A stretch of DNA of 23,542 nt from IMG/VR virus record IMGVR_UViG_643348547_000006. The stretch is one strand, 5' to 3'. Below, piece by piece: positions 7,243 to 23,187 of the stretch. How positions within the stretch are numbered: position 1 is the stretch's first letter; each line of letters starts with the position of its first letter. A model generated the notes under the pieces. The model was not told where the DNA came from, did not search any database, and saw only the letters and a program-made list of their open reading frames with translations. This stretch comes from a virus (lineage: Duplodnaviria > Heunggongvirae > Uroviricota > Caudoviricetes). A program made the translations under genes and the position numbers.

Positions 7243-7308
7243 AATAACGGTATTTGTCTGCTTGCAGGGATAATCAACATAATGCTGATTCAGGGGGATT
7301 CATTGATC

Positions 7309-8128
7309 GGCACTGTTGCAAAGTTAGCGATGAGGCAGCCTTTTGTCTTATTCAAAGGCCTTACATTTCAAAAACTCTGCTTACCAGGCGCATTTCGCCC
7401 AGGGGATCACCATAATAAAATGCTGAGGCCTGGCCTTTGCGTAGTGCACGCATCACCTCAATACCTTTGATGGTGGCGTAAGCCGTCTTCATGGATTTAA
7501 ATCCCAGCGTGGCGCCGATTATCCGTTTCAGTTTGCCATGATCGCATTCAATCACGTTGTTCCGGTACTTAATCTGTCGGTGTTCAACGTCAGACGGGCA
7601 CCGGCCTTCGCGTTTGAGCAGAGCAAGCGCGCGACCATAGGCGGGCGCTTTATCCGTGTTGATGAATCGCGGGATCTGCCACTTCTTCACGTTGTTGAGG
7701 ATTTTACCCAGAAACAGGTATGCAGCTTTGCTGTTACGACGGGAGGAGAGATAAAAATCGACAGTGCGGCCCCGGCTGTCGACGGCCCGGTACAGATACG
7801 CCCAGCGGCCATTGACCTTCACGTAGGTTTCATCCATGTGCCACGGGCAAAGATCGGAAGGGTTACGCCAGTACCAGCGCAGCCGTTTTTCCATTTCAGG
7901 CGCATAACGCTGAACCCAGCGGTAAATCGTGGAGTGATCGACATTCACTCCGCGTTCAGCCAGCATCTCCTGCAGCTCACGGTAACTGATGCCGTATTTG
8001 CAGTACCAGCGTACGGCCCACAGAATGATGTCACGCTGAAAATGCCGGCCTTTGAATGGGTTCATGTGCAGCTCCATCAGCAAAAAGGGATGATAAGTTT
8101 ATCACCACCGACTATTTGCAACAGCGCC
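7309..8128 (-). mobile_element. IS26-like (IS6 family) insertion sequence, copy 1, 820 bp, no target-site duplication
   Basis: Terminal 14-bp repeats GGCACTGTTGCAAA (7309-7322) and, on the other strand, GGCGCTGTTGCAAA (8115-8128); encodes the Tnp26-like transposase. Flanking octamers differ (CATTGATC vs AAAAGCGG). Confidence 0.9.
7361..8065 (-). CDS. tnp26: IS26-family DDE transposase
   Basis: 234 aa from MNPFKGRHFQRDIILWAVRWYCKYGISYRELQ..., recalled as Tnp26; ATG at 8063-8065. Translation is identical to the copy-2 transposase. Confidence 0.9.
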   Translation of the reverse strand: MNPFKGRHFQRDIILWAVRWYCKYGISYRELQEMLAERGVNVDHSTIYRWVQRYAPEMEKRLRWYWRNPSDLCPWHMDETYVKVNGRWAYLYRAVDSRGRTVDFYLSSRRNSKAAYLFLGKILNNVKKWQIPRFINTDKAPAYGRALALLKREGRCPSDVEHRQIKYRNNVIECDHGKLKRIIGATLGFKSMKTAYATIKGIEVMRALRKGQASAFYYGDPLGEMRLVSRVFEM

Positions 8129-9277
8129 AAAAGCGGCACCGTTGCATTTCAGCCAGCCTGTTGGCGGAGTGGCTGAAGGCCACGGAACAGGCACCCCAAC
8201 CGGTAATGCAGAGCCTTCTCCCAAACCAAGGTATGTGAGAAGACCAGCTACATCCTTTCCACTCAAATTGGTAAGCGTATTGTCCAGCGGTTGTTTACCT
8301 GCCAGCGCATTAAGCATTGTCGTGGCAAAGTTCGGATCATTCCCCAGTGCCACCGCCAGTTCGTTCAGTGTATCCAGTGCAGCAGGTGCAGAACCCACCA
8401 TTCCTGCAATCGCCGATTTCACAAAAGCCGTAGTGGCAATCTGTGTATTGTTGACCGACTGCGCCGCCGTGGGGGCTGTTGGCGTTCCGGTGAGTGCCGG
8501 ACTCGACAACGGTGCTTTTAGTGCCAGCGCATTGTTAATGGTGGTACTGAAATTCGGATCATTGTTAATGGCTGCGGCTATTTCTTTCAGCGTGTCCAGC
8601 GTGGCTGGCGCACCATTAATAAGGGCCGTCAGTGCCGCCTGTACAAACGCAGTGGTCGCAACCTGCGTGGTATTATTCCCCGCCGCTGGCGTTGGCGCTT
8701 TGGGGGTTCCGGTAAATGTCGGGCTGGCTTTTGGCGCGTACTGTGAATGCGGGTCCGGTGCGGCAAGATGTTTTGCCATCTGATCATCCGCGTACACCTT
8801 CAGCTCCAGTGCCTTGTCATCCACATACTTGCGGGTTGCCAGCACTACAGCAGGGTCGATTTTCAGGGTGATATTGTCCGTGCTGCTGGTAATCAGCACC
8901 ATGCGCACGGTCTGAGTGCGCCCGCTACCTTCAGCCAGTTGCGGCTTATAGCTTTCCGGGCAGTTGCCCACGGCAATCAATGCACCTGACTCATCAAACA
9001 GGCCCACTTCACGTATCCACCAACCGCCCTCGTTTTCAGGGATCACCTGTTCGGCAATAATCTGGCTGCTGTTCTGCGGGTCGATATAAAGCATATTCAG
9101 CGCAGCCCGGCGTTTCTCATTTACCAGTGCCGTCTGCTTTGCGTCCGGCGTTGGCAATACTCCACCGCCATCGCCCACCGCCATATGGGTAATTTTTAGC
9201 GGCACACCGAGCGCGGCGGCGCTGGCAAGTTTCGCCGCGCCAATATCCGTCAGCAGGGTATAAAATTTTGTGCTCAT
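8129..9277 (-). pseudogene. H: Tail fibre protein gpH, 3'-truncated by IS26
   Basis: ORF 8102..9277 has a P2 H-like N-terminus (MSTKF...MAVGDGGG...ESYKPQLAEGSGR...) and reaches ...PVPWPSATPPTGWLKCNGAAF; its last 8 residues (GAVANSRW) and stop are encoded by the IS26 end. About 380 aa remain versus roughly 670 aa in P2 H. Confidence 0.8.
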
Positions 9278-9879
9278 GGATTCACTCTCATTGTGTCAAT
9301 AACATGGACCGCCCCGCCTTCATGCGCGGTGCCACCGGAAATAATCGTTTCGTTGATATACGGATAGATCGTGATTTCTTCGCCAAGATAGCTGGCGGCT
9401 CCCACCCAATGCGGGCCGCTGGTCTGCAGATTGATGGACATGCCGATCATGTGGCGGCTACATGGTTTGGCATCGCTTATCAGTCGCTCAAGTTCCAGAT
9501 AGGTATCTTCAGTGATGCCCTGGTCCTGCACGCCGATATCCAGGCGAAACGTGCCCGGTGTTTCTCCGGTCTGCCACCACTCAATAATGCGGATCAGGAA
9601 TCCGAACGGCTCCACCACCCGCCGCACGGCACTGGTGGTCCCTTTATGCTGATGAATATAAAAAGCATCCTTCACCACCTGGCGCTTGACGCTTTCTGTC
9701 CAGCCCTCGTCCCAGCGATCCACAGAGAACGCCCAGGCGAGATAAGGCAGGAAACTGACCGGACAGGTTGCCGGATTCCACAAATCACGAAGCGGCACCT
9801 GCAGATCAGAAATCCCGCTGCAGGTTTGCGCCAGTCGGCACTCCAGTGGTGTTGAACCCGGTGGCAGCAGACTATTCAT
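9274..9879 (-). CDS. I: Baseplate protein gpI
   Basis: 201-aa ORF; ATG 9877-9879 with GGAGG upstream; overlaps the H start (ATGA); position between J and H matches P2. Confidence 0.8.
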   Translation of the reverse strand: MNSLLPPGSTPLECRLAQTCSGISDLQVPLRDLWNPATCPVSFLPYLAWAFSVDRWDEGWTESVKRQVVKDAFYIHQHKGTTSAVRRVVEPFGFLIRIIEWWQTGETPGTFRLDIGVQDQGITEDTYLELERLISDAKPCSRHMIGMSINLQTSGPHWVGAASYLGEEITIYPYINETIISGGTAHEGGAVHVIDTMRVNP

Positions 9880-10780
9880 CCGTTCCTCCGTTGGTTACGC
9901 TCCACTGCGTACATGATGCCGCCTGTGTTTTGTTCAGGACCACATCCGCCAGAGGAGAAGCCAGCTCCACACGCTGCACCCCCTCAACATGCAGGGCGGC
10001 AAAGATGGCGCTACGGCGAATATCCCGACCAAGACGCGTCTGACTGGCGATGTACTTCTGCAGGCTGGCTTTTGCCGCTGCCATTACCGGCTCTGCTTCC
10101 GGTCCAGGATAGAGAAAAATGGTGGCTTCCACGCGATACGGGATGATTTCTGCGCTGCGAACCGTAAGACGGTCAGCCACCGGGCGGACGTTCTCACTGT
10201 TCAGAGCTTTTTCCACCACGTCCAGCAGGTCTTTTTCTGCAGTTCCATCGCCTTCGCGGCTAAGGACAGTCAGCACCACCTCTGCAGGTGCCGGGCTGGT
10301 TGCACTGGCATCCGCCACCCGACCGTCGGCGCTTCGGGCATGAAATTCATAAGCTGCAGTTGGCCCCGCAACAGAAAGCCCTTCAAAGGCTGCAGGCACA
10401 CGCAGGCGCAACGCTTCATCGCTTTCCATCACAGCTGCAACGGGCGGCACAGCATCATTATCAGCAGGCGTCACCGTCAGGCGTGTCACGTTGTAGTTGG
10501 CAGCGAGCTGGTCAAGATCGCCGCCCATCGCGTAAGCCACCATCACCGCCTGCGCGGCTTCGTTAATGCGCTGGCGCAGAAGCAACTCACGGTAAGCGTT
10601 CTCCTGCAACAATTTAGTGGCGGGTTCAGATTCCAGTTCCAGCGTGCGGATCACTGCTTCCTGCTCATCTTTCGGATGAAGCGCCACAAATTCTGCCTTG
10701 CGTTCGGCAAGCAGCGTCTCAAAGTCCGGCACATCCACAATCTGCGGTGCAGGCAACTGCGAAAGGTCAATCACTGCCAT
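9872..10780 (-). CDS. J: Baseplate protein gpJ
   Basis: Start set at the internal ATG (MAVIDLSQLPAP, 10778-10780) with AGGAG 6 nt upstream; N-terminus resembles P2 J. Confidence 0.85.
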   Translation of the reverse strand: MAVIDLSQLPAPQIVDVPDFETLLAERKAEFVALHPKDEQEAVIRTLELESEPATKLLQENAYRELLLRQRINEAAQAVMVAYAMGGDLDQLAANYNVTRLTVTPADNDAVPPVAAVMESDEALRLRVPAAFEGLSVAGPTAAYEFHARSADGRVADASATSPAPAEVVLTVLSREGDGTAEKDLLDVVEKALNSENVRPVADRLTVRSAEIIPYRVEATIFLYPGPEAEPVMAAAKASLQKYIASQTRLGRDIRRSAIFAALHVEGVQRVELASPLADVVLNKTQAASCTQWSVTNGGTDE

Positions 10781-11126
10781 TCTCTGCTCCTGTTGATACG
10801 GAAAGGGACACAGGCACACCGTTATTCCGCCGCCCGGTCAGCTCCACCACCATTGAACCGTCAAAATTGCTGTTGATGGTGATGGAATCCAGCGTCAACC
10901 GTGGCTCCCAGCGACTCAGCGCCACATACACTGCCGACATGACCTGCAGGCGTAATGCCGGATTTTGTGGCTGATCTATCAGTGCCGACAGCAGGGAACC
11001 ATATTCCCGGCGGGCAATACGGCTACCCTGCGGTGTCAGCAGAATGTCCCGCACCGACTGGCGCAGATGATCAATATCAGTAATGACTTTGCCGCTGGTA
11101 TTGTTCATCCCGCTATAAAGCGTCAT
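10767..11126 (-). CDS. W: Baseplate protein gpW
   Basis: 119-aa ORF between V and J; ATG 11124-11126 overlaps the V stop. Confidence 0.8.
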   Translation of the reverse strand: MTLYSGMNNTSGKVITDIDHLRQSVRDILLTPQGSRIARREYGSLLSALIDQPQNPALRLQVMSAVYVALSRWEPRLTLDSITINSNFDGSMVVELTGRRNNGVPVSLSVSTGAENGSD

Positions 11127-11701
11127 ACCGGGCCTCCGGTTGTATCGCCGCCTTTCAGGACGCCAGTATGCTGATGCGCATCAACCACGATCCCGTTAGA
11201 ACTCATCGCTCCGCCGCCCTGGGTAACGCCACCATTGATCACCACTTCGCTGTTAATGCGCGTGCGGTCAGCCTCCAGTACAAACTCACTGGTTTTCATG
11301 GTGATGTTGTCAGCAGCCTCAATGACCATTGATTTGATGCCCCTGACATACCAGCGCCCGGTGGCGGGTTCGTATTCAAACCAGCCACCGTCAGGATGTT
11401 CTGTCACGCAGGCGTCCGCCGACGTCGACGGTGGTGCGAACTGATTCGAATAGACAGCGGGCAGCGCAAAGGCGGTTTCCAGATTGCCGCCCAGACTCAG
11501 CAGCACCACCTGCTCACCTTCCGATGGTCGCCACCATGTACGGGCATTCCCGGCACGCAGCGTCAGCCAGCTGATCCAGTTGGTTTCAAGCTCGCCCGTT
11601 TTCACCCGGCAAAGCCAGTTTTCCCTGTCCACTTCGGTGACTACCCCTGTGCGGATCAGGTTGGTGATAAGGCGCATGATTTCGGTTAATTGTGCGTTCA
11701 T
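11123..11701 (-). CDS. V: Baseplate spike/hub protein gpV
   Basis: 192-aa ORF; strong resemblance to recalled P2 V (N-terminal IRTG..TE.D, C-terminal HxH...GGxTxGP). Confidence 0.85.
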   Translation of the reverse strand: MNAQLTEIMRLITNLIRTGVVTEVDRENWLCRVKTGELETNWISWLTLRAGNARTWWRPSEGEQVVLLSLGGNLETAFALPAVYSNQFAPPSTSADACVTEHPDGGWFEYEPATGRWYVRGIKSMVIEAADNITMKTSEFVLEADRTRINSEVVINGGVTQGGGAMSSNGIVVDAHQHTGVLKGGDTTGGPV

Positions 11702-11746
11702 AGGGAAAGGTTGCCATCAGGGGAAGAAAGGCGGCAGTGCTGCAAC

Positions 11747-11766
11747 TTGTATCAGTGCTGATACAA
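11747..11766 (-). promoter_or_regulatory. Palindrome TTGTATCAG-TG-CTGATACAA in the S-V intergenic region (candidate Ogr site or hairpin)
   Basis: Perfect 9-bp inverted repeat with 2-nt spacer at 11747-11766; also fits TTGT-N12-ACAA; centred 55 bp upstream of the V ATG. Confidence 0.35.
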
Positions 11767-11769
11767 AGA

Positions 11770-12216
11770 TCACCCCGCCAGCCATTGCAGAATCATGTCG
11801 CGGGTCATTGCCTCAACATCATCATTTACACCCAGAAGGCGACGCTCTGCGTAACGCACCTCCGGTCCCTTACGACTGACGCGATCTCGCAGGCCGTAAT
11901 GGTGAACGCGGGCAATGCGCTGCACCTTGCCTTCAAACTGCACGCTGGCAGAGTCGGCGCTGGCGGAAGTTTTCAGGTATTTTGTGGTGCGCAGCTTTGC
12001 AAACATCTGACGTTTGATACGGCCTTTTTTACTGCGTGCTGTTACCCGTCGCGGTTCATAACTGCTGCCATCTGGATTGCGCTGCATTCTGATATTTTGC
12101 TGCTGTGTCCGGCGTAGTTCCTGCGCCAGCTGGCGCATCATGCGGCTTCTTGCGGCTGGCTCCAGATTCGCCAGCAAGGCACTCAGCCAGTCGTCCACTT
12201 TCTGCAGTTCAGCCAC
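11770..12216 (-). CDS. S: Tail completion protein gpS
   Basis: 148-aa ORF (AELQKVDDWLSALLANLEP...) resembling P2 S; the ORF's first codon is GTG (12214-12216); exact start uncertain. Confidence 0.75.
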   Translation of the reverse strand: MAELQKVDDWLSALLANLEPAARSRMMRQLAQELRRTQQQNIRMQRNPDGSSYEPRRVTARSKKGRIKRQMFAKLRTTKYLKTSASADSASVQFEGKVQRIARVHHYGLRDRVSRKGPEVRYAERRLLGVNDDVEAMTRDMILQWLAG

Positions 12217-12640
12217 GTTTCACCGTCCACATTTCTTCAGGTTCATCAGGTTCCGCTATAGCTTCAACGCTCGACACACTGCCGTCAGTGCTGACCAGCA
12301 CACGCTCCGTCAGTTGCAGGTTGAGGCTGATATCACAGACATCGTTGCGCAGAATATCCACCTCAAAGGTGAATAGCTTTTCCCGTAACGCCGGGTTATT
12401 GATGGCATCGGGCTGGTTATCACGCAGCCACAGCAAAACCGGGGCCATCAGCAGATTCTGGTCGCCGCTGAAATCCTCAATCACCACGTTCAGGGTGTAG
12501 CGGTACTCCCATGACATGGAGCTGGCCCCCGTGGCAACCAGCGAACCGTTATCCACAAACAGATGCAGTTTGTCCGGGTTATTGCGGACATAAGGCACCG
12601 CTTTATTGAGGGCGTGGCGCAGGGATTGTGGTTTGTTCAC
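12209..12640 (-). CDS. R: Tail completion protein gpR
   Basis: ORF 12209..12661 begins with TTG; a GTG at 12638-12640 preceded by AGGAG 8 nt upstream gives an N-terminus (M)NKPQSLRHAL similar to P2 R (MLKPDSLRRAL). Confidence 0.7.
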   Translation of the reverse strand: MNKPQSLRHALNKAVPYVRNNPDKLHLFVDNGSLVATGASSMSWEYRYTLNVVIEDFSGDQNLLMAPVLLWLRDNQPDAINNPALREKLFTFEVDILRNDVCDISLNLQLTERVLVSTDGSVSSVEAIAEPDEPEEMWTVKRG

Positions 12641-12893
12641 TGTTTCGCTCCTGACACGCAATAATCATGTCCACTTTGTCTGCACAGACCGCCCAGGCGG
12701 CCTCCGTTTCATCCAGCAACGCATTCAGATCACCGTTAGTGCGCGGTGCTGCCTGCTCCAGCCGACACGGCGTCACTCGCGGACAACCACTGACGGTAAG
12801 CTGCACCTCCGGTGAGTGCCGGACGTTCCCGCAGCCGGATAATGTCAGCAGGCAAAGGAGTATCAGCCCAGTGGCGTAAATCCTCGTTCTCAC
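12603..12893 (-). CDS. lysC: Outer-membrane spanin lipoprotein (LysC/Rz1-like)
   Basis: 96-aa ORF with a signal peptide and lipobox (LLCLLTLSGC) and a Pro-rich C-terminus; starts inside lysB in another frame and extends into R, as P2 lysC does; GTG start with GAGGA upstream. Confidence 0.7.
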   Translation of the reverse strand: MRTRIYATGLILLCLLTLSGCGNVRHSPEVQLTVSGCPRVTPCRLEQAAPRTNGDLNALLDETEAAWAVCADKVDMIIACQERNSEQTTIPAPRPQ

Positions 12894-16743: not shown

Positions 16744-17577
16744 TCAGCAATTGGTCAGAGTGTCAGCGGGGGCGTTACCGCCTGTTGCACGCTGGCGGTA
16801 GTCCTGGCGGCTGTCTTCATGGCTCAGCTTGTCCACCAGTTCGTTAAAGGCGGTCTGCTGTGCCTGCAGGGCAGTCTCCAGCTCAGACAGGCGTTCTTCC
16901 TGCTCAGACAGGGATTTTTCGGTGCGCGCACTCAGGTTCTGCTGCTCAGTGGCGACCAGTTCCACGGCCTTATGCACATCAGAGAACCGGGCGTCATCGG
17001 ACTGCTCTTTTTTGGTGAACAGCGCCGTGACACGGGCAAACAGGGACGGTTTGTCATCCTGGATTTCTTCCAGTTCGATCACCGTTTCCTCTGCAGCGGT
17101 AAAAAGATTGGCGGGATTCTGCTTGCGGTTTGCCAGCGGGTTATGGGCTGCACTGGCGCTGAATGTCAGCATTTCAGTGCCCAGACTGGCAGGGTCATCA
17201 GTGGCAGCCAGGCCGACCAGGTAGGCTTTGCCCGTATCAGCGAACTTCGGGCTAACTTCCATAGATGTGAATAATTTCTGGCCTTTTTTCACCAGTTCCA
17301 CCAGGGACTCCGTTGGCTCAACGTCGGCATACAGCGCCATCTTGCCTGCCAGCGGACCTTCCTTGATTTCTTCAGCAAACAGCGCCGTCACCTTGCCGTA
17401 GCGGTTAAAGGTGCTGTCCGGCAGATAAGACTTGATGTGCTCAAGGTTAATCAGCGCGGTATACACCGCCGGGTTGTAGCTGGCTGCCATCTGTTCCAGC
17501 CATTCACGCTGGATTTCGCGTCCGTCGGTGGTGGCACCTTCCACCCCGATGCGAAAACGCTTTGCTTTCACTGTCAT
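16744..17577 (-). CDS. O: Capsid scaffolding protein gpO
   Basis: 277 aa; close to recalled P2 O (FRIGVEG...DGR.I......YNP.VY...INLEH...YLVGLA.TDDPASLGTE...ATGG..AD.L.NC). Confidence 0.85.
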   Translation of the reverse strand: MTVKAKRFRIGVEGATTDGREIQREWLEQMAASYNPAVYTALINLEHIKSYLPDSTFNRYGKVTALFAEEIKEGPLAGKMALYADVEPTESLVELVKKGQKLFTSMEVSPKFADTGKAYLVGLAATDDPASLGTEMLTFSASAAHNPLANRKQNPANLFTAAEETVIELEEIQDDKPSLFARVTALFTKKEQSDDARFSDVHKAVELVATEQQNLSARTEKSLSEQEERLSELETALQAQQTAFNELVDKLSHEDSRQDYRQRATGGNAPADTLTNC

Positions 17578-17654
17578 GAGCCGTGCTCCGTTAGAAAAAA
17601 CTTACTGGAGCCTTATGGTTGCGGTGATGGGGGCAGTGAAACAATGCGCGGTAT

Positions 17655-17674
17655 TTGTACCGACAACCACACAA
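17655..17674. promoter_or_regulatory. Candidate Ogr-binding dyad (TTGT-N12-ACAA) in the divergent P/O promoter region
   Basis: ttgtaccgacaaccacacaa at 17655-17674, centred about 87 bp upstream of the O ATG and 55 bp upstream of the P ATG. Confidence 0.45.
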
Positions 17675-17719
17675 ACCGCAGGCGGGGAAAGCCTTCATTC
17701 AAGGTTGTAGGTTTGTGCC

Positions 17720-18826
17720 ATGAACACCACACTGACACCCGCAGATCTCGATCCCCGTCGGCAGGCCATGCTGCTGTACTTTCAGGGATACCGCGTAGCC
17801 CGCATTGCTGAAATGCTGGGCGAGAAAGTTGCAACCGTTCACAGCTGGAAAAAACGCGACAAGTGGGGTGACTATGGGCCGCTGGATCAGATGCAGCTCA
17901 CCACCGCCGCACGCTACTGCCAGCTCATCATGAAGGAGCACAAAGAAGGGAAAGATTTCAAAGAGATTGACCTGCTGGCGCGCCAGTCGGAGCGCCACGC
18001 GCGGATCGGCAAGTTTAACAATGGCGGCAACGAAGCCGACTTAAACCCTAACGTCGCCAACCGCAATAAAGGCCCACGCCGTCAGCCGGAAAAGAATGTT
18101 TTCACCGATGAGCAGATTGAGAAGCTGGAAGAAATCTTCCATTCCTCCATGTTCAACTACCAGCGCCACTGGTGGGAAGCCGGAAAAACCAACCGCATCC
18201 GCAACCTGCTGAAGTCACGCCAGATCGGCGCGACCTTTTACTTTGCCCGTGAAGCCCTGATTGACGCCCTGCTTACCGGACGTAACCAGATTTTCCTTTC
18301 CGCCAGCAAGGCACAGGCCCACGTCTTTAAGCAGTACATCATCGACTTCGCCAAAGAAGTGGGGGTGGAGTTGAAAGGCGATCCGATGGTGCTTCCTAAC
18401 GGGGCCACGCTTTACTTCCTCGGCACCAATGCCCGCACGGCCCAGAGTTATCACGGCAACCTGTATCTGGATGAATATTTCTGGATACCGAAATTCCAGG
18501 AGCTGCGCAAAGTGGCTTCCGGTATGGCTATTCACAAAAAATGGCGACAAACCTATTTTTCCACGCCATCCAGCCTGACACACAGTGCTTATCCGTTCTG
18601 GTCCGGTGCGCTGTTCAACCGTGGGCGCAACAAGGCCGACAAGGTGGACATCGACCTGTCCCACAGCAATCTGGCCCCCGGCCTGCTGTGCGCAGACGGG
18701 CAATACCGCCAGATAGTCACCGTGGAAGATGCGGTGCGCGGCGGCTGTAACCTGTTCGACCTTGACCAGTTGCGCATGGAGTACAGCCCGGACGAATACC
18801 AGAACCTGCTGATGTGCGAGTTTGTG
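17720..18826 (+). pseudogene. P: Terminase large (ATPase) subunit gpP, 5' portion, interrupted by IS26
   Basis: ORF 17720..18853 reads about 369 codons of P and then 8 IS-encoded codons (GAVANSRW) before a stop inside the IS26 end. Confidence 0.85.
18819..18826. repeat. 8-bp target-site duplication AGTTTGTG (left copy) of IS26 copy 2
   Basis: Identical octamer immediately flanks both ends of the 820-bp element. Confidence 0.85.
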
Positions 18827-19646
18827 GGCGCTGTTGCAAATAGTCGGTGGTGATAAACTTATCATCCCTTTTTGCTGATGGAGCTGCACATGAACCCATT
18901 CAAAGGCCGGCATTTTCAGCGTGACATCATTCTGTGGGCCGTACGCTGGTACTGCAAATACGGCATCAGTTACCGTGAGCTGCAGGAGATGCTGGCTGAA
19001 CGCGGAGTGAATGTCGATCACTCCACGATTTACCGCTGGGTTCAGCGTTATGCGCCTGAAATGGAAAAACGGCTGCGCTGGTACTGGCGTAACCCTTCCG
19101 ATCTTTGCCCGTGGCACATGGATGAAACCTACGTGAAGGTCAATGGCCGCTGGGCGTATCTGTACCGGGCCGTCGACAGCCGGGGCCGCACTGTCGATTT
19201 TTATCTCTCCTCCCGTCGTAACAGCAAAGCTGCATACCTGTTTCTGGGTAAAATCCTCAACAACGTGAAGAAGTGGCAGATCCCGCGATTCATCAACACG
19301 GATAAAGCGCCCGCCTATGGTCGCGCGCTTGCTCTGCTCAAACGCGAAGGCCGGTGCCCGTCTGACGTTGAACACCGACAGATTAAGTACCGGAACAACG
19401 TGATTGAATGCGATCATGGCAAACTGAAACGGATAATCGGCGCCACGCTGGGATTTAAATCCATGAAGACGGCTTACGCCACCATCAAAGGTATTGAGGT
19501 GATGCGTGCACTACGCAAAGGCCAGGCCTCAGCATTTTATTATGGTGATCCCCTGGGCGAAATGCGCCTGGTAAGCAGAGTTTTTGAAATGTAAGGCCTT
19601 TGAATAAGACAAAAGGCTGCCTCATCGCTAACTTTGCAACAGTGCC
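18827..19646 (+). mobile_element. IS26-like (IS6 family) insertion sequence, copy 2, 820 bp, with 8-bp target-site duplication
   Basis: Ends GGCGCTGTTGCAAA (18827-18840) and TTTGCAACAGTGCC (19633-19646). Transposase and antisense-ORF translations are identical to copy 1 up to the element boundary. Confidence 0.9.
18890..19594 (+). CDS. tnp26: IS26-family DDE transposase
   Basis: 234 aa from ATG 18890-18892; identical translation to copy 1. Confidence 0.9.
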   Translation: MNPFKGRHFQRDIILWAVRWYCKYGISYRELQEMLAERGVNVDHSTIYRWVQRYAPEMEKRLRWYWRNPSDLCPWHMDETYVKVNGRWAYLYRAVDSRGRTVDFYLSSRRNSKAAYLFLGKILNNVKKWQIPRFINTDKAPAYGRALALLKREGRCPSDVEHRQIKYRNNVIECDHGKLKRIIGATLGFKSMKTAYATIKGIEVMRALRKGQASAFYYGDPLGEMRLVSRVFEM

Positions 19647-19654
19647 AGTTTGTG
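19647..19654. repeat. 8-bp target-site duplication AGTTTGTG (right copy) of IS26 copy 2
   Basis: Matches 18819-18826 exactly. Confidence 0.85.
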
Positions 19655-20314
19655 GACGATCTCGCGTCCGTATTTCCGCTCAGCGAGCTGCAGGCGTGCA
19701 TGGTGGACAGCTGGGAAGTCTGGACCGACTTTCATGCACTGGCTCTGCGCCCGTTTGGCTGGCGCGAAGTGTGGATCGGTTATGACCCGGCAAAAGGTAC
19801 GCAAAACGGCGACAGCGCCGGATGCGTGGTGGTGGCACCGCCAGCCGTGCCTGGTGGTAAGTTCCGCATTCTTGAGCGTCACCAGTGGCGCGGGATGGAC
19901 TTCCGCGCCCAGGCTGACGCCATCAAAAAACTGACCGAACAGTACAACGTGACCTATATCGGTATCGACTCAACCGGCGTTGGTCACGGGGTTTATGAGA
20001 ACGTGAAAGCGTTCTTTCCTGCCGTCCGGGAGTTTGTCTACAACCCCAATGTTAAAAACGCCCTGGTACTCAAGGCCTACGACATTATCAGCCACCGCCG
20101 TCTGGAGTTTGACGCCGGGCACACCGACATTGCGCAGTCATTTATGGCAATCCGTCGCGCTACCACTGCCAGTGGCAACCGCCCGACCTATGAAGCCAGC
20201 CGCAGCGAAGAAGCCAGCCATGCCGATCTGGCCTGGGCAACAATGCACGCACTGTTTAACGAACCGCTGCAGGGCGAGTCCGCCAATACCAGCAATATTG
20301 TGGAGATTTTTTGA
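19647..20314 (+). pseudogene. P: Terminase large subunit gpP, 3' portion
   Basis: Removing the IS and one duplication copy restores a continuous frame ...LLMCEFVDDLASVFPLSELQ...; stop TGA at 20312-20314 overlaps the Q ATG. Confidence 0.85.
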
Positions 20315-21348
20315 TGGGAAAGAGTAAGAAGAACCGCGCTGCGTCGACGAAACAGATCCAGCATAAAAGCCAGACTTCAGCCGAAGCATTCAGCTTCGGT
20401 GATCCCGTTCCTGTTCTGGACCGCCGCGAACTGCTGGACTATGTGGAATGCGTACAGATGGAGTGTTGGTACGAGCCACCCGTAAGTTTTGACGGACTGG
20501 CGCGCACCTTCCGGGCTGCCGTGCATCACAGTTCCCCGATTGCAGTAAAGTGCAACATTCTGACCAGTACCTATATCCCTCATCCGCTGCTCAGCCAACA
20601 GGCTTTTTCGCGTTTTGTACAGGACTATCTGGTATTTGGTAACGCCTACCTGGAGAAACGCACGAACCGATTCGGTGAAGTTATCGCCCTTGAGCCTGCG
20701 CTGGCAAAATACACCCGACGCGGGTTAGACCTGGATACCTACTGGTTTGTGCAATACGGTATGACAACCCAGCCGTATCAGTTCACGAAAGGCAGCATTT
20801 TTCAGCTGATGGAACCGGACATCAACCAGGAGATCTACGGCCTGCCCGGCTATCTTTCTGCCATCCCATCCGCTTTGCTCAACGAGTCCGCCACGCTGTT
20901 CCGCCGCAAGTATTACATTAACGGCAGTCATGCCGGCTTCATCATGTACATGACCGATGCCGCGCAGAACCAGGAGGATGTGAACAACCTCCGCAACGCA
21001 ATGAAAAGCGCCAAAGGTCCGGGTAACTTCCGCAATCTGTTTATGTACTCGCCTAATGGTAAAAAAGACGGACTTCAGATTATCCCGTTGTCAGAAGTCG
21101 CAGCGAAGGATGAATTTCTGAATATCAAAAATGTTAGTCGCGATGACATGATGGCAGCACACCGCGTGCCGCCACAGATGATGGGGATAATGCCAAATAA
21201 TGTTGGGGGGTTTGGGGATGTGGAGAAGGCAAGTAATGTATTTGTACGCAATGAACTAATACCATTGCAAAAAAGATTTGAAGAGTTAAATGTTTGGTTA
21301 AAAGAAAAAGTGATACAGTTCGAAGAATATAAACTTCATTCAAATTAG
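20314..21348 (+). CDS. Q: Portal protein gpQ
   Basis: ATG 20314-20316 overlaps the P stop (TGATG); 344 aa, the size I recall for P2 Q. The last ~50 codons are markedly AT-rich. Confidence 0.85.
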   Translation: MGKSKKNRAASTKQIQHKSQTSAEAFSFGDPVPVLDRRELLDYVECVQMECWYEPPVSFDGLARTFRAAVHHSSPIAVKCNILTSTYIPHPLLSQQAFSRFVQDYLVFGNAYLEKRTNRFGEVIALEPALAKYTRRGLDLDTYWFVQYGMTTQPYQFTKGSIFQLMEPDINQEIYGLPGYLSAIPSALLNESATLFRRKYYINGSHAGFIMYMTDAAQNQEDVNNLRNAMKSAKGPGNFRNLFMYSPNGKKDGLQIIPLSEVAAKDEFLNIKNVSRDDMMAAHRVPPQMMGIMPNNVGGFGDVEKASNVFVRNELIPLQKRFEELNVWLKEKVIQFEEYKLHSN

Positions 21349-21373: not shown

Positions 21374-21477
21374 AGAACCTTTATCGCCATTTTAGATAAA
21401 AAGCAAAAAATGGATCAGTAATATGAACCGCCCCGGGAATCCTGGAGACTAAACTTCCTGAGAAAGAGGTAAACAGG

Positions 21478-21804
21478 ATGACTAAAAATACTCGTTTTTC
21501 CCCCGAAGTCCGTCAACGGGCAGTCCGTATGGTTCTGGAAAGTCAGAGCGAATATGACTCACAATGGGCGACAATTTGTTCCATTGCTCCAAAGATTGGC
21601 TGTACGCCGGAGACTCTGCGTGTCTGGGTTCGCCAGCATGAGCGGGATACCGGGGGCGGTGATGGAGGGCTCACCACCGCTGAACGTCAGCGTCTGAAAG
21701 AGCTGGAACGTGAAAATCGTGAACTGCGCCGCAGTAACGATATCCTTCGCCAGGCTTCCGCTTATTTTGCGAAGGCGGAGTTCGACCGCCTCTGGAAAAA
21801 ATGA
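21478..21804 (+). CDS. IS3-family transposase OrfA (helix-turn-helix / leucine-zipper subunit)
   Basis: 108 aa, [23 protein letters not shown]...; recalled as IS629/IS1203 OrfA. Confidence 0.85.
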
Positions 21805-22691
21805 TGCCACTGCTGGATAAGCTGCGTGAGCAGTACGGGGTCGGACCGCTATGCAGCGAACTGCATATTGCCCCGTCAACGTATTACCACTGTCAGCAAC
21901 AGCGACATCATCCGGATAAACGCAGTGCCCGTGCGCAGCGCGATGACTGGCTGAAGAAAGAGATACAGCGCGTATACGATGAAAATCACAAGGTATACGG
22001 TGTGCGTAAAGTCTGGCGTCAGTTGTTACGGGAAGGTATCAGAGTGGCCAGATGCACTGTGGCACGTCTCATGGCGGTTATGGGACTTGCCGGTGTTCTC
22101 CGGGGTAAAAAGGTCCGTACGACCATCAGCCGGAAAGCCGTTGCCGCAGGCGACCGCGTAAACCGTCAGTTCGTGGCAGAACGACCTGACCAGCTGTGGG
22201 TGGCTGATTTTACTTACGTCAGCACATGGCGGGGCTTCGTCTATGTGGCGTTCATCATTGATGTGTTTGCCGGATACATCGTGGGGTGGCGGGTCTCATC
22301 GTCCATGGAAACGACATTCGTGCTGGATGCACTGGAGCAGGCGTTATGGGCCCGTCGACCGTCCGGCACGGTCCATCACAGTGATAAAGGTTCTCAGTAT
22401 GTATCGCTGGCCTACACACAGCGGCTTAAGGAAGCCGGATTACTGGCATCAACAGGAAGTACAGGCGACTCGTATGACAACGCGATGGCGGAGAGCATCA
22501 ATGGTCTTTACAAAGCGGAGGTAATACACCGTAAGAGCTGGAAAAACCGTGCAGAAGTGGAACTGGCCACACTCACGTGGGTGGACTGGTATAACAATCG
22601 ACGATTGCTGGAAAGGCTGGGCCATACTCCTCCGGCAGAAGCAGAAAAAGCTTATTATGCTTCCATCGGAAACGATGATCTGGCAGCCTGA
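21801..22691 (+). CDS. IS3-family transposase OrfB (DDE catalytic domain); OrfAB fusion predicted by -1 frameshift
   Basis: 296-aa ORF in the -1 frame relative to orfA, overlapping at the A-run GGAAAAAATGA; contains DDE-type motifs ([15 protein letters not shown]). Confidence 0.85.
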
Positions 22692-22733
22692 GTTCACAGA
22701 TAAAACACTCTCCAGGAAACCCGGGGCGGTTCA

Positions 22734-23133
22734 GGTGACCAAATACCGAATTACCTTTGTAAGAACGAAGGGGAAGAAAAACAGAAGCATCCCTATCAGT
22801 AAAGAGCTTTACGAAGAGATCATGGCGTTTGATGGGTTCAATTTCTTCACAGACTGCTATTTTCAATTTTTATCCGTGATGGAAAAAACGTCTATCGTGC
22901 TCCCTCGCGGTCAACTGACACACGTTCTGCGCCATACTTTTGCGGCGCACTTCATGATGTCGGGTGGAAACATCCTGGCCTTACAAAAAATTCTCGGACA
23001 CCACGATATAAAAATGACTATGCGTTACGCACATCTGGCACCGGATCATCTGGAAACGGCGCTCCGTTTCAATCCTCTGGCAACATTGCCAAGTGGCGAC
23101 AAAGTGGCGGCAGCGGTTGGCATTACCCCGTAA
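22734..23133 (+). pseudogene. int: Tyrosine integrase, C-terminal catalytic fragment (5'-truncated at the IS629 boundary)
   Basis: Frame open from the IS end; encodes ...RTKGKKNRSIPISKELYEEI...HVLRHTFAAHFMMSGGNILALQKILGHHDIKMTMRYAHLAPDH, i.e. the Lys, His-x-x-Arg, His and Tyr motifs of tyrosine recombinases; the N-terminal domain and first catalytic Arg are absent. Confidence 0.75.
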
Positions 23134-23151
23134 TAACCACCACTGACCACC

Positions 23152-23187
23152 AATCTAACTTATTGTTTCTAATCTAACTTATTGTTT
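23152..23187 (+). repeat. Tandem direct repeat (2 x 17 bp AATCTAACTTATTGTTT, 2-bp spacer) in the attL region
   Basis: Read directly from sequence, 19 bp after the int stop; could be integrase arm-type sites or part of the att core. Confidence 0.5.

Follow-up and report, generated by a model that had tools for sequence, protein, structure and literature searches.

Recent insertion of an IS26 variant into the terminase gene P of a P2-like prophage remnant in Escherichia coli

A rare variant of the insertion sequence IS26 interrupts gene P, which encodes the large terminase subunit, in a P2-like (Peduoviridae, Elveevirus-like) prophage remnant of the E. coli chromosome. The window, that is, the whole stretch of 23,542 nucleotides analysed here, spans the entire remnant, from ogr to a fragment of a host LysR gene, and contains two copies of the element. 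The copy located in P (copy 2) lies between perfect 8-bp direct repeats, and removal of the IS together with one repeat restores an uninterrupted gene. Taken together, these features are very probably the outcome of a replicative copy-in event into P of a remnant that was already defective, followed by resolution, and the insertion would represent a late, neutral step of prophage decay.

Copy 2 occupies positions 18827-19646 on the plus strand (820 bp) and is enclosed by the octamer AGTTTGTG, which is present on the left at 18819-18826 and on the right at 19647-19654. The left junction reads ...GATGTGCG AGTTTGTG followed by GGCGCTGTTGCAAATAG..., with which the IS starts, and the right junction reads ...TTTGCAACAGTGCC, with which it ends, followed by AGTTTGTG GACGATCT. 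Target-site duplications of 8 bp are typical of IS26, and at two given IS ends an 8-bp match is expected by chance with a probability of about 1.5e-5; a search of both strands of the window revealed no third copy of the octamer. The direct repeat does not extend leftward, and rightward it gains a single base, a G that could equally be the first G of the IS. The canonical reading of the junction assigns 820 bp to the IS and 8 bp to the duplication. An earlier note on this DNA had placed the octamer at both ends of copy 2, and this placement is right to the base, coordinates included.

The insertion divides P into a 5′ part (17720-18826, plus strand, codons 1-369), which encodes the N-terminal domain of gpP and nearly all of the ATPase domain, and a 3′ part (19655-20314, plus strand, codons 370-588 and the stop), which encodes the RNaseH-like nuclease domain. 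The target octamer corresponds to codons 367-369 and the IS follows codon 369; the gene is consequently split between its ATPase and nuclease domains. The interrupted reading frame continues to position 18853, where the last eight residues (GAVANSRW*) are encoded by the IS, giving a product of 377 amino acids. In-silico excision of the IS and one octamer joins 17720-18826 in frame to 19655-20314 and reopens P, as anticipated in the earlier note, into an ORF of 1767 nt and 588 codons that reads ...QNLLMCEFV followed by DDLASVFPLSELQ... across the repaired site.

The restored product displays the complete domain set of a terminase, namely Terminase_5 (PF06056, residues 11-68), the T4-type ATPase Terminase_6N (PF03237, residues 162-382) and the RNaseH-like nuclease Terminase_6C (PF17289, residues 410-571). 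It aligns with P2 gpP over residues 3-588 against 4-590 (63% identity) and is colinear over the insertion point, where LLMCEFVDDLASVFP aligns with LFMCEFVDDKASVFP of gpP and the motif MCEFVDD is kept across the junction. The earlier assignment of the interrupted gene as a P-type large terminase is borne out by these domains and by this alignment, in which the loss of colinearity that would have contradicted it was not seen. A single alignment over residues 1-588 is likewise obtained with the TerL of Escherichia phage Cartapus (Peduoviridae, Elveevirus; 99.8%), and dozens of further terminases of P2-like phages align with the restored protein in one piece.

The gene context is also that of P2. 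Genes O, N, M and L lie on the strand opposite to P, and the intact portal gene Q (20314-21348, plus strand) comes next after P, in the order found in P2 and Cartapus, and its start codon shares bases with the P stop codon (TGATG). Both P2 gpP and Cartapus TerL share with the restored gene the domain order, the divergent arrangement of O and P, and the succession of P and Q with a 1-nt overlap, and the length of 588 residues compares with 590 in gpP. In contrast to P2 and Cartapus, where P is unbroken, the gene is split here at codon 369/370 and the surrounding phage genome is incomplete.

The closest relatives of the remnant are found in E. coli O7:K1 CE10 (NC_017646.1, approximately 1760.8-1789.3 kb) and in strain AR_0013, which carry the prophage at the same site, within a LysR-family gene between sad and yneK, with 99.95-100% nucleotide identity over the late-gene block. 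Comparison with relatives lacking the IS, which the earlier note had proposed, shows P uninterrupted in both strains and the same allele as the restored gene (0 differences in 1767 nt). The empty site of CE10, CTGCTGATGTGCGAGTTTGTGGACGATC, equals the site obtained from the window after excision, and many E. coli genomes give a match of 992 bp (500 + 500 - 8), which corresponds to the empty site. The junction between P and IS26 was found in none of 5,426 complete E. coli genomes, from which the structure at copy 1 is likewise absent, and the exact junction is also missing from species-representative genomes, IMG/VR and JGI metagenome contigs.

Both relatives carry the same IS3-family element after Q as the window and no IS26 in the prophage. 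CE10 differs from the window in retaining the tail-fibre and invertase block, CI, ISEc53, ClbS and the full int gene, and in having an extra 81 bp in gpR. AR_0013 differs in an int truncation 73 bp longer than that of the window and in an inversion between the sheath and tail-fibre genes.

The inserted element was identified as IS26 in the earlier note, and its membership of the IS26 family is confirmed, with the refinement that it is a rare variant, 99.6% identical to the common form. Its tnp26 gene (18890-19594, plus strand, in the same orientation as P) encodes a DDE transposase of 234 amino acids (Pfam DDE_Tnp_IS240, E = 1.5e-47) with the substitution R117L. The IS26 terminal repeat has a 14-bp consensus, GGCACTGTTGCAAA, at both ends (PMC8477213). 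The right repeat, TIRR (19633-19646), matches this consensus perfectly, whereas the left repeat, TIRL (18827-18840, GGCGCTGTTGCAAA), matches it at 13 of 14 positions and keeps the conserved GG, TGT and 10G. With respect to common IS26 (Tnp26 WP_001067855.1), 817 of the 820 nt are the same; the three differences, at IS positions 4, 43 and 413, are A4G in TIRL, C43T in the leader and G413T, the last giving R117L. The two forms share the length of 820 bp, the 14-bp terminal repeats, the single 234-aa DDE transposase and the 8-bp target duplication, and differ in these three substitutions and in the imperfect ends (13/14) of the variant. Over its full length the variant can be aligned with IS26 copies carried by plasmids of K. 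pneumoniae and A. baumannii, and according to the ISfinder isoform rule (more than 95% nucleotide and more than 98% amino acid identity, quoted in PMC6807381) it is an IS26 isoform.

At 99% identity or above, the element matches at least 5000 plasmids in PLSDB, most of them at 99.6%. An identical IS copy occurs in 14 plasmids among the PLSDB matches listed, all from E. coli, and several of these come from isolates of blood, urine or cerebrospinal fluid. One of the 14 is the plasmid of strain CE10, pCE10A, where the variant is annotated as an IS26 family transposase (WP_001067838.1). Two existing labels were considered for the variant and set aside. IS15-delta-1, which is 3 bp and 1 amino acid away from IS26 (PMC6807381), was dropped since the differences of the variant are not those of the G184N type. 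The G184N type is IS26-v1, a form of enhanced activity (PMC8477213) that was first named IS15-delta (PMC7986276), and the two G184N-type copies compared differ from the IS of the window at six positions. A full-text search of the literature for the TIRL sequence GGCGCTGTTGCAAA returned no match. Since transversions at terminal repeat bases 3-5 abolish cointegration in vitro (PMC8477213), the A4G element may not have moved by its own transposase.

The second copy of the variant, copy 1, lies at 7309-8128 on the minus strand, inverted relative to copy 2 and 10.7 kb apart from it; over 820 nt the two are 100% identical as reverse complements. Between the inverted copies lie 10.7 kb of phage head, lysis and baseplate genes. 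Unlike copy 2, copy 1 is flanked by two different octamers, CATTGATC and AAAAGCGG, and has no target duplication, as is expected from an adjacent deletion. It stands in place of 2379 bp found in CE10, and the sequences lost comprise the last ~400 nt of the tail-fibre gene H, two tail-fibre assembly genes, an alternative fibre tip and a Gin-like invertase gene, of which only the last 19 nt are left. The truncated H (8129-9277, minus strand) keeps its first 383 codons, and its ORF continues into copy 1 and ends at 8102.

Intramolecular transposition of IS26 in cis deletes adjacent DNA and leaves no duplication (PMC4471558), and the structure of copy 1 appears to fit this outcome; recombination between two formerly direct copies would give the same structure. 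Compared with the IS26 rearrangements described by He et al. 2015 (PMC4471558), copy 2 bears the intermolecular signature, with matching 8-mers, and copy 1 that of a cis deletion, with a partial gene left behind and unique flanks. The context differs: a resistance plasmid in that study, and here an E. coli chromosomal prophage remnant without resistance genes. Chromosomal IS26 copies in prophage regions have been noted before (PMC4471558). A composite transposon formed by the inverted IS pair was also considered and rejected, as the sequences on the outer sides of the pair differ from each other and the DNA between the copies has, in situ, the same order as in relatives.

The event at copy 2 is recent, and this is well supported by several features: the two IS copies are 100% identical, the duplication is perfect, P has accumulated no substitution relative to CE10 in 1767 nt, the part of the remnant that lies upstream of copy 2 (~18 kb) differs from CE10 by only four substitutions, and the insertion is absent from every finished genome examined. 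The recent date that the earlier note had read from the intact duplication and undamaged frame is thereby upheld by the identity of the copies, the unmutated P and the absence from genomes.

With regard to the mechanism, members of the IS26 family are reported to yield only cointegrates and not simple insertions (PMC7986276; PMC6807381), by either a copy-in or a targeted conservative route (PMC6807381; PMC8477213; PMC7986276), and recA-dependent recombination between the IS copies of a cointegrate leaves a lone IS with new direct repeats (PMC7986276). Copy 2 is therefore better explained by copy-in and resolution than by a one-step insertion, and the term "simple transposition" used in the earlier note does not hold, given that the lone IS requires the additional recA-dependent step (PMC7986276). 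In the proposed sequence of events, the variant would have entered the octamer AGTTTGTG of P by replicative copy-in, staggered cleavage of the target and its repair would have produced the 8-bp duplication, and the two IS copies of the cointegrate would then have recombined homologously, so that a single IS remained. The most likely donors are a resident IncF plasmid of the pCE10A type carrying the variant and a sister chromosome with copy 1, a suggestion based on the rarity of the variant and on its presence on the plasmid of CE10 itself. The donor replicon lies outside the window, and the intermolecular route is deduced.

An intramolecular origin would also fit two copies that are identical, inverted and 10.7 kb apart. 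One copy would then have been made from the other by replicative transposition in trans, with inversion of the 10.7 kb; in this intermediate the duplication would be split between the copies as AGTTTGTG and CACAAACT, and subsequent recombination would re-invert the segment, so that the end state shows the restored gene order and copy 2 with AGTTTGTG directly repeated on both sides. The three rare substitutions common to both copies are in line with such a course, a trans pathway with this pattern of duplication has been described for IS26 (PMC4471558), and the number of steps equals that of the intermolecular route. However, the inversion has left no trace, the gene order being colinear with CE10, Cartapus and P2; the 8-mers of copy 1, CATTGATC and AAAAGCGG, match neither AGTTTGTG nor its reverse complement; and pCE10A, with its identical IS, offers a plausible external donor. 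The intramolecular course is accordingly regarded as unlikely, and intermolecular copy-in with resolution is retained as the preferred reading.

A more speculative proposal concerns the element itself. The variant, with its asymmetric ends and R117L, might occur only in a small lineage of IncF plasmids of E. coli, still be mobile and behave differently from common IS26, for example with more chromosomal or local hopping, and the bracketed 10.7-kb block could in principle move or invert as a unit; this is considered improbable.

The functional weight of the insertion depends on the state of the remnant downstream of Q. An IS3-family element of 1310 bp with 25-bp inverted repeats (21424-22733, plus strand) begins 75 bp past the Q stop and is annotated with a programmed frameshift in CE10 and AR_0013. 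It is followed by the 3′ remnant of int (22734-23133, plus strand); beyond this, comparison with CE10 and AR_0013 places the attachment-site region and the fragment of the host LysR-family gene. The left junction of the IS3 element is common to four complete genomes (CE10, AR_0013, N32 and OZ546943), and the right-hand junctions differ among the three relatives compared. In CE10 the element adjoins a CII fragment, whereas in the window it adjoins the int remnant, and 4076 bp more are missing than in CE10 (the CII fragment, CI, ISEc53, ClbS and most of int).

A search of the phage collection with the sequence just after Q gave only weak portal-gene matches, and an intact relative from the E. 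coli collection, Ecol_224, served as the template for this region. Its order after Q is a hypothetical gene, the cos core, DinI, gene A, Dam, CII, a cox-like gene, CI and int. P2 cosL, the annotated cos of Cartapus and Ecol_224 all contain the cos core GGCGWGGCGGGGA, which is absent from the window, CE10 and AR_0013. Genes for gpA, Dam, CII, cox and CI are all lacking from the window, and this early region is present in both Cartapus and Ecol_224. Only the last 400 nt of int are left, and an intact integrase and an intact tail fibre are both wanting, H being cut after codon 383. From H to Q, the remaining late genes are undamaged and near-identical to those of the relatives. From this gene content, the remnant is predicted to be unable to replicate, excise, package DNA or make tail fibres.

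Since the IS26-free prophages of CE10 and AR_0013 have themselves lost cos and gpA, the phage was, on the simplest account, no longer viable by the time IS26 came in, and the disruption of P would be neutral, given that P was already without function in a dead phage. The insertion would accordingly be placed late, after the loss of cos, the replication genes and the early region next to the IS3-family element; in the same lineage, the sister IS26 copy would have removed the tail-fibre and invertase block, and CI and most of int would have gone as well. The order of the P insertion relative to the IS3-adjacent deletions in this lineage is deduced by parsimony across three relatives.

The opposite view would be that the insertion itself disabled the packaging of an otherwise competent, inducible P2-like prophage and rendered it defective. 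P2-type packaging cannot proceed without P, the insertion separates the ATPase domain of P from the nuclease domain, and the remaining late genes from H to Q are intact, all of which would be compatible with this view. Nevertheless, it is very improbable: the window has no cos core, gpA, Dam, CII, cox or CI, int is a remnant and the tail fibre is truncated, and the IS26-free CE10 and AR_0013 share the IS3 element after Q and are likewise without cos and gpA. The statement of the earlier note that the insertion inactivates packaging overstates the effect for an element in which cos, gene A, CI and most of int are gone and the tail fibre is truncated.

The structure was also found in independent short-read data. 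The truncated 377-aa P product has an exact match in three Logan short-read contigs, e.g. from SRR20168719, and a Logan contig of 10.8 kb covers the segment between the inner ends of the two IS copies. At copy 2 the junction of this contig is that of the window, and at copy 1 it equals that of the window except for 11 extra nucleotides (GCAACAGCGCC). Although IS26 is multicopy and often confuses assemblers, and the odd 11-nt extra stands at the copy 1 junction, misplacement of an IS26 copy in P during repeat resolution is extremely improbable, since it would not produce a perfect 8-bp target duplication, three independent contigs share the left junction and the 377-aa product, and the contigs break exactly at both IS copies, as a real repeat should cause them to do. 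The P::IS26 structure is real and belongs to a small lineage.

Concerning the expression of Q, the P2 record annotates an operon composed of P and Q, whose start site precedes P and whose terminator, tQ, follows Q, together with an activator site and the pO and pP start sites between P and O. In the window, the O-P intergenic region (17578-17719) is presumed to hold the divergent late promoters, and it contains the motif TGT-N12-ACA at approximately 17655-17672, presumably an Ogr-type activator site. A hairpin is located after Q. The IS would probably lower Q expression through the loss of P-Q translational coupling, and the polarity on Q suggested in the earlier note is reasonable given that P and Q form one operon in P2 and overlap here at TGATG. 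Polarity of the Rho type is plausible as well, because translation of P would end at 18853 and leave ~720 nt of untranslated P before Q. Within the IS, the P strand showed no intrinsic terminator-like site; since tnp26 is moreover co-oriented with P, read-through transcription into Q would be possible. At the right IS end, the hexamers at the usual spacing after TTGCAA show, by eye, a poor -10 match, and an outward hybrid promoter at this position is unlikely.

The event is of a known kind, a textbook IS26 signature in a P2-type gene and an instance of IS-driven prophage erosion, and as ordinary prophage decay it matters little beyond bookkeeping; polarity on Q is likewise of little consequence in this defective remnant. 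Of slight interest to IS26 specialists, and mildly unusual, is the fact that a variant with an imperfect left end has evidently still moved, which provides evidence from nature that a transition at position 4 of the terminal repeat is tolerated. For prophage biology, the remnant shows in good resolution how insertion sequences erode a prophage step by step, each intermediate state being visible in sequenced relatives, and it illustrates that the whole element should be considered before a functional effect is assigned to a terminase pseudogene in a prophage.

The IS26 copy at 7309-8128 (copy 1) is identical in sequence to copy 2, the element inside terminase gene P, and lies inverted relative to it. 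No target duplication is present at copy 1, as the flanking octamers at 7301-7308 and 8129-8136 read CATTGATC vs AAAAGCGG, respectively. In the window, this copy replaces 2379 bp of the sequence found in the E. coli relative CE10, and so lacks a Gin-like invertase, a pair of tail-fibre assembly genes and both the tip of the tail fibre and its alternative. Judged from the sequence, the lack of a duplication together with the replaced 2379 bp marks a deletion next to IS26. The truncated products of P and of the tail-fibre gene H share the same IS-encoded C-terminal end, GAVANSRW*. Compared with the window, positions 1-50 of the Logan short-read contig SRR20168719 include 11 additional nucleotides, GCAACAGCGCC, where copy 1 is joined. 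These are probably a de Bruijn graph artefact, arising because both ends of this contig enter the same IS end in opposite orientations.

The IS26 at 18827-19646 (copy 2) is a rare variant that differs at IS positions 4, 43 and 413, namely an A4G change within its left-hand terminal repeat, a C43T change and the Tnp26 substitution R117L. An identical copy occurs in only 14 PLSDB plasmids, all of them from E. coli. One of these is pCE10A, and it is in the chromosome of the strain hosting this plasmid that the closest prophage with an empty site is found.

A further insertion, an IS3-family element of 1310 bp with 25-bp inverted repeats, is located at 21424-22733, 75 bp past the portal gene Q. 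We take it to be IS629/IS1203-like; the annotation of the relatives gives nothing finer than an IS3 family transposase with programmed frameshift. The element occupies the same site in CE10, AR_0013, N32 and OZ546943, and the extent of the deletions to its right differs among CE10, the window and AR_0013. From these sequences, the right flank looks as if it had been repeatedly nibbled.

The relatives also differ within the tail genes. CE10 has 81 bp more in the gpR gene (16752-16913 of its locus vs about 12319-12399 of the window), and this extra segment, absent from both the window and AR_0013, looks like a tandem duplication. In AR_0013, the region from mid-sheath gene to tail-fibre tip (9138-12742 of its locus) is inverted with respect to the window and CE10, splitting both the sheath and tail-fibre genes. 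Overlaps of 7 bp occur at both break points, and the inversion may be an aberrant invertase-mediated event.

The attachment-site region contains, immediately 3' of the integrase stop codon, a direct repeat of the 17-nt AATCTAACTTATTGTTT with 19-nt spacing (23152-23187); these repeats may be Int arm-type binding sites. The late activator gene ogr is intact at the left window end, inside an 83-aa ORF (1-252) that aligns with CE10 ogr, and the O-P intergenic region holds a TGT-N12-ACA element (17655-17672), presumably matching the site through which Ogr/delta activates the late promoters of P2/P4.
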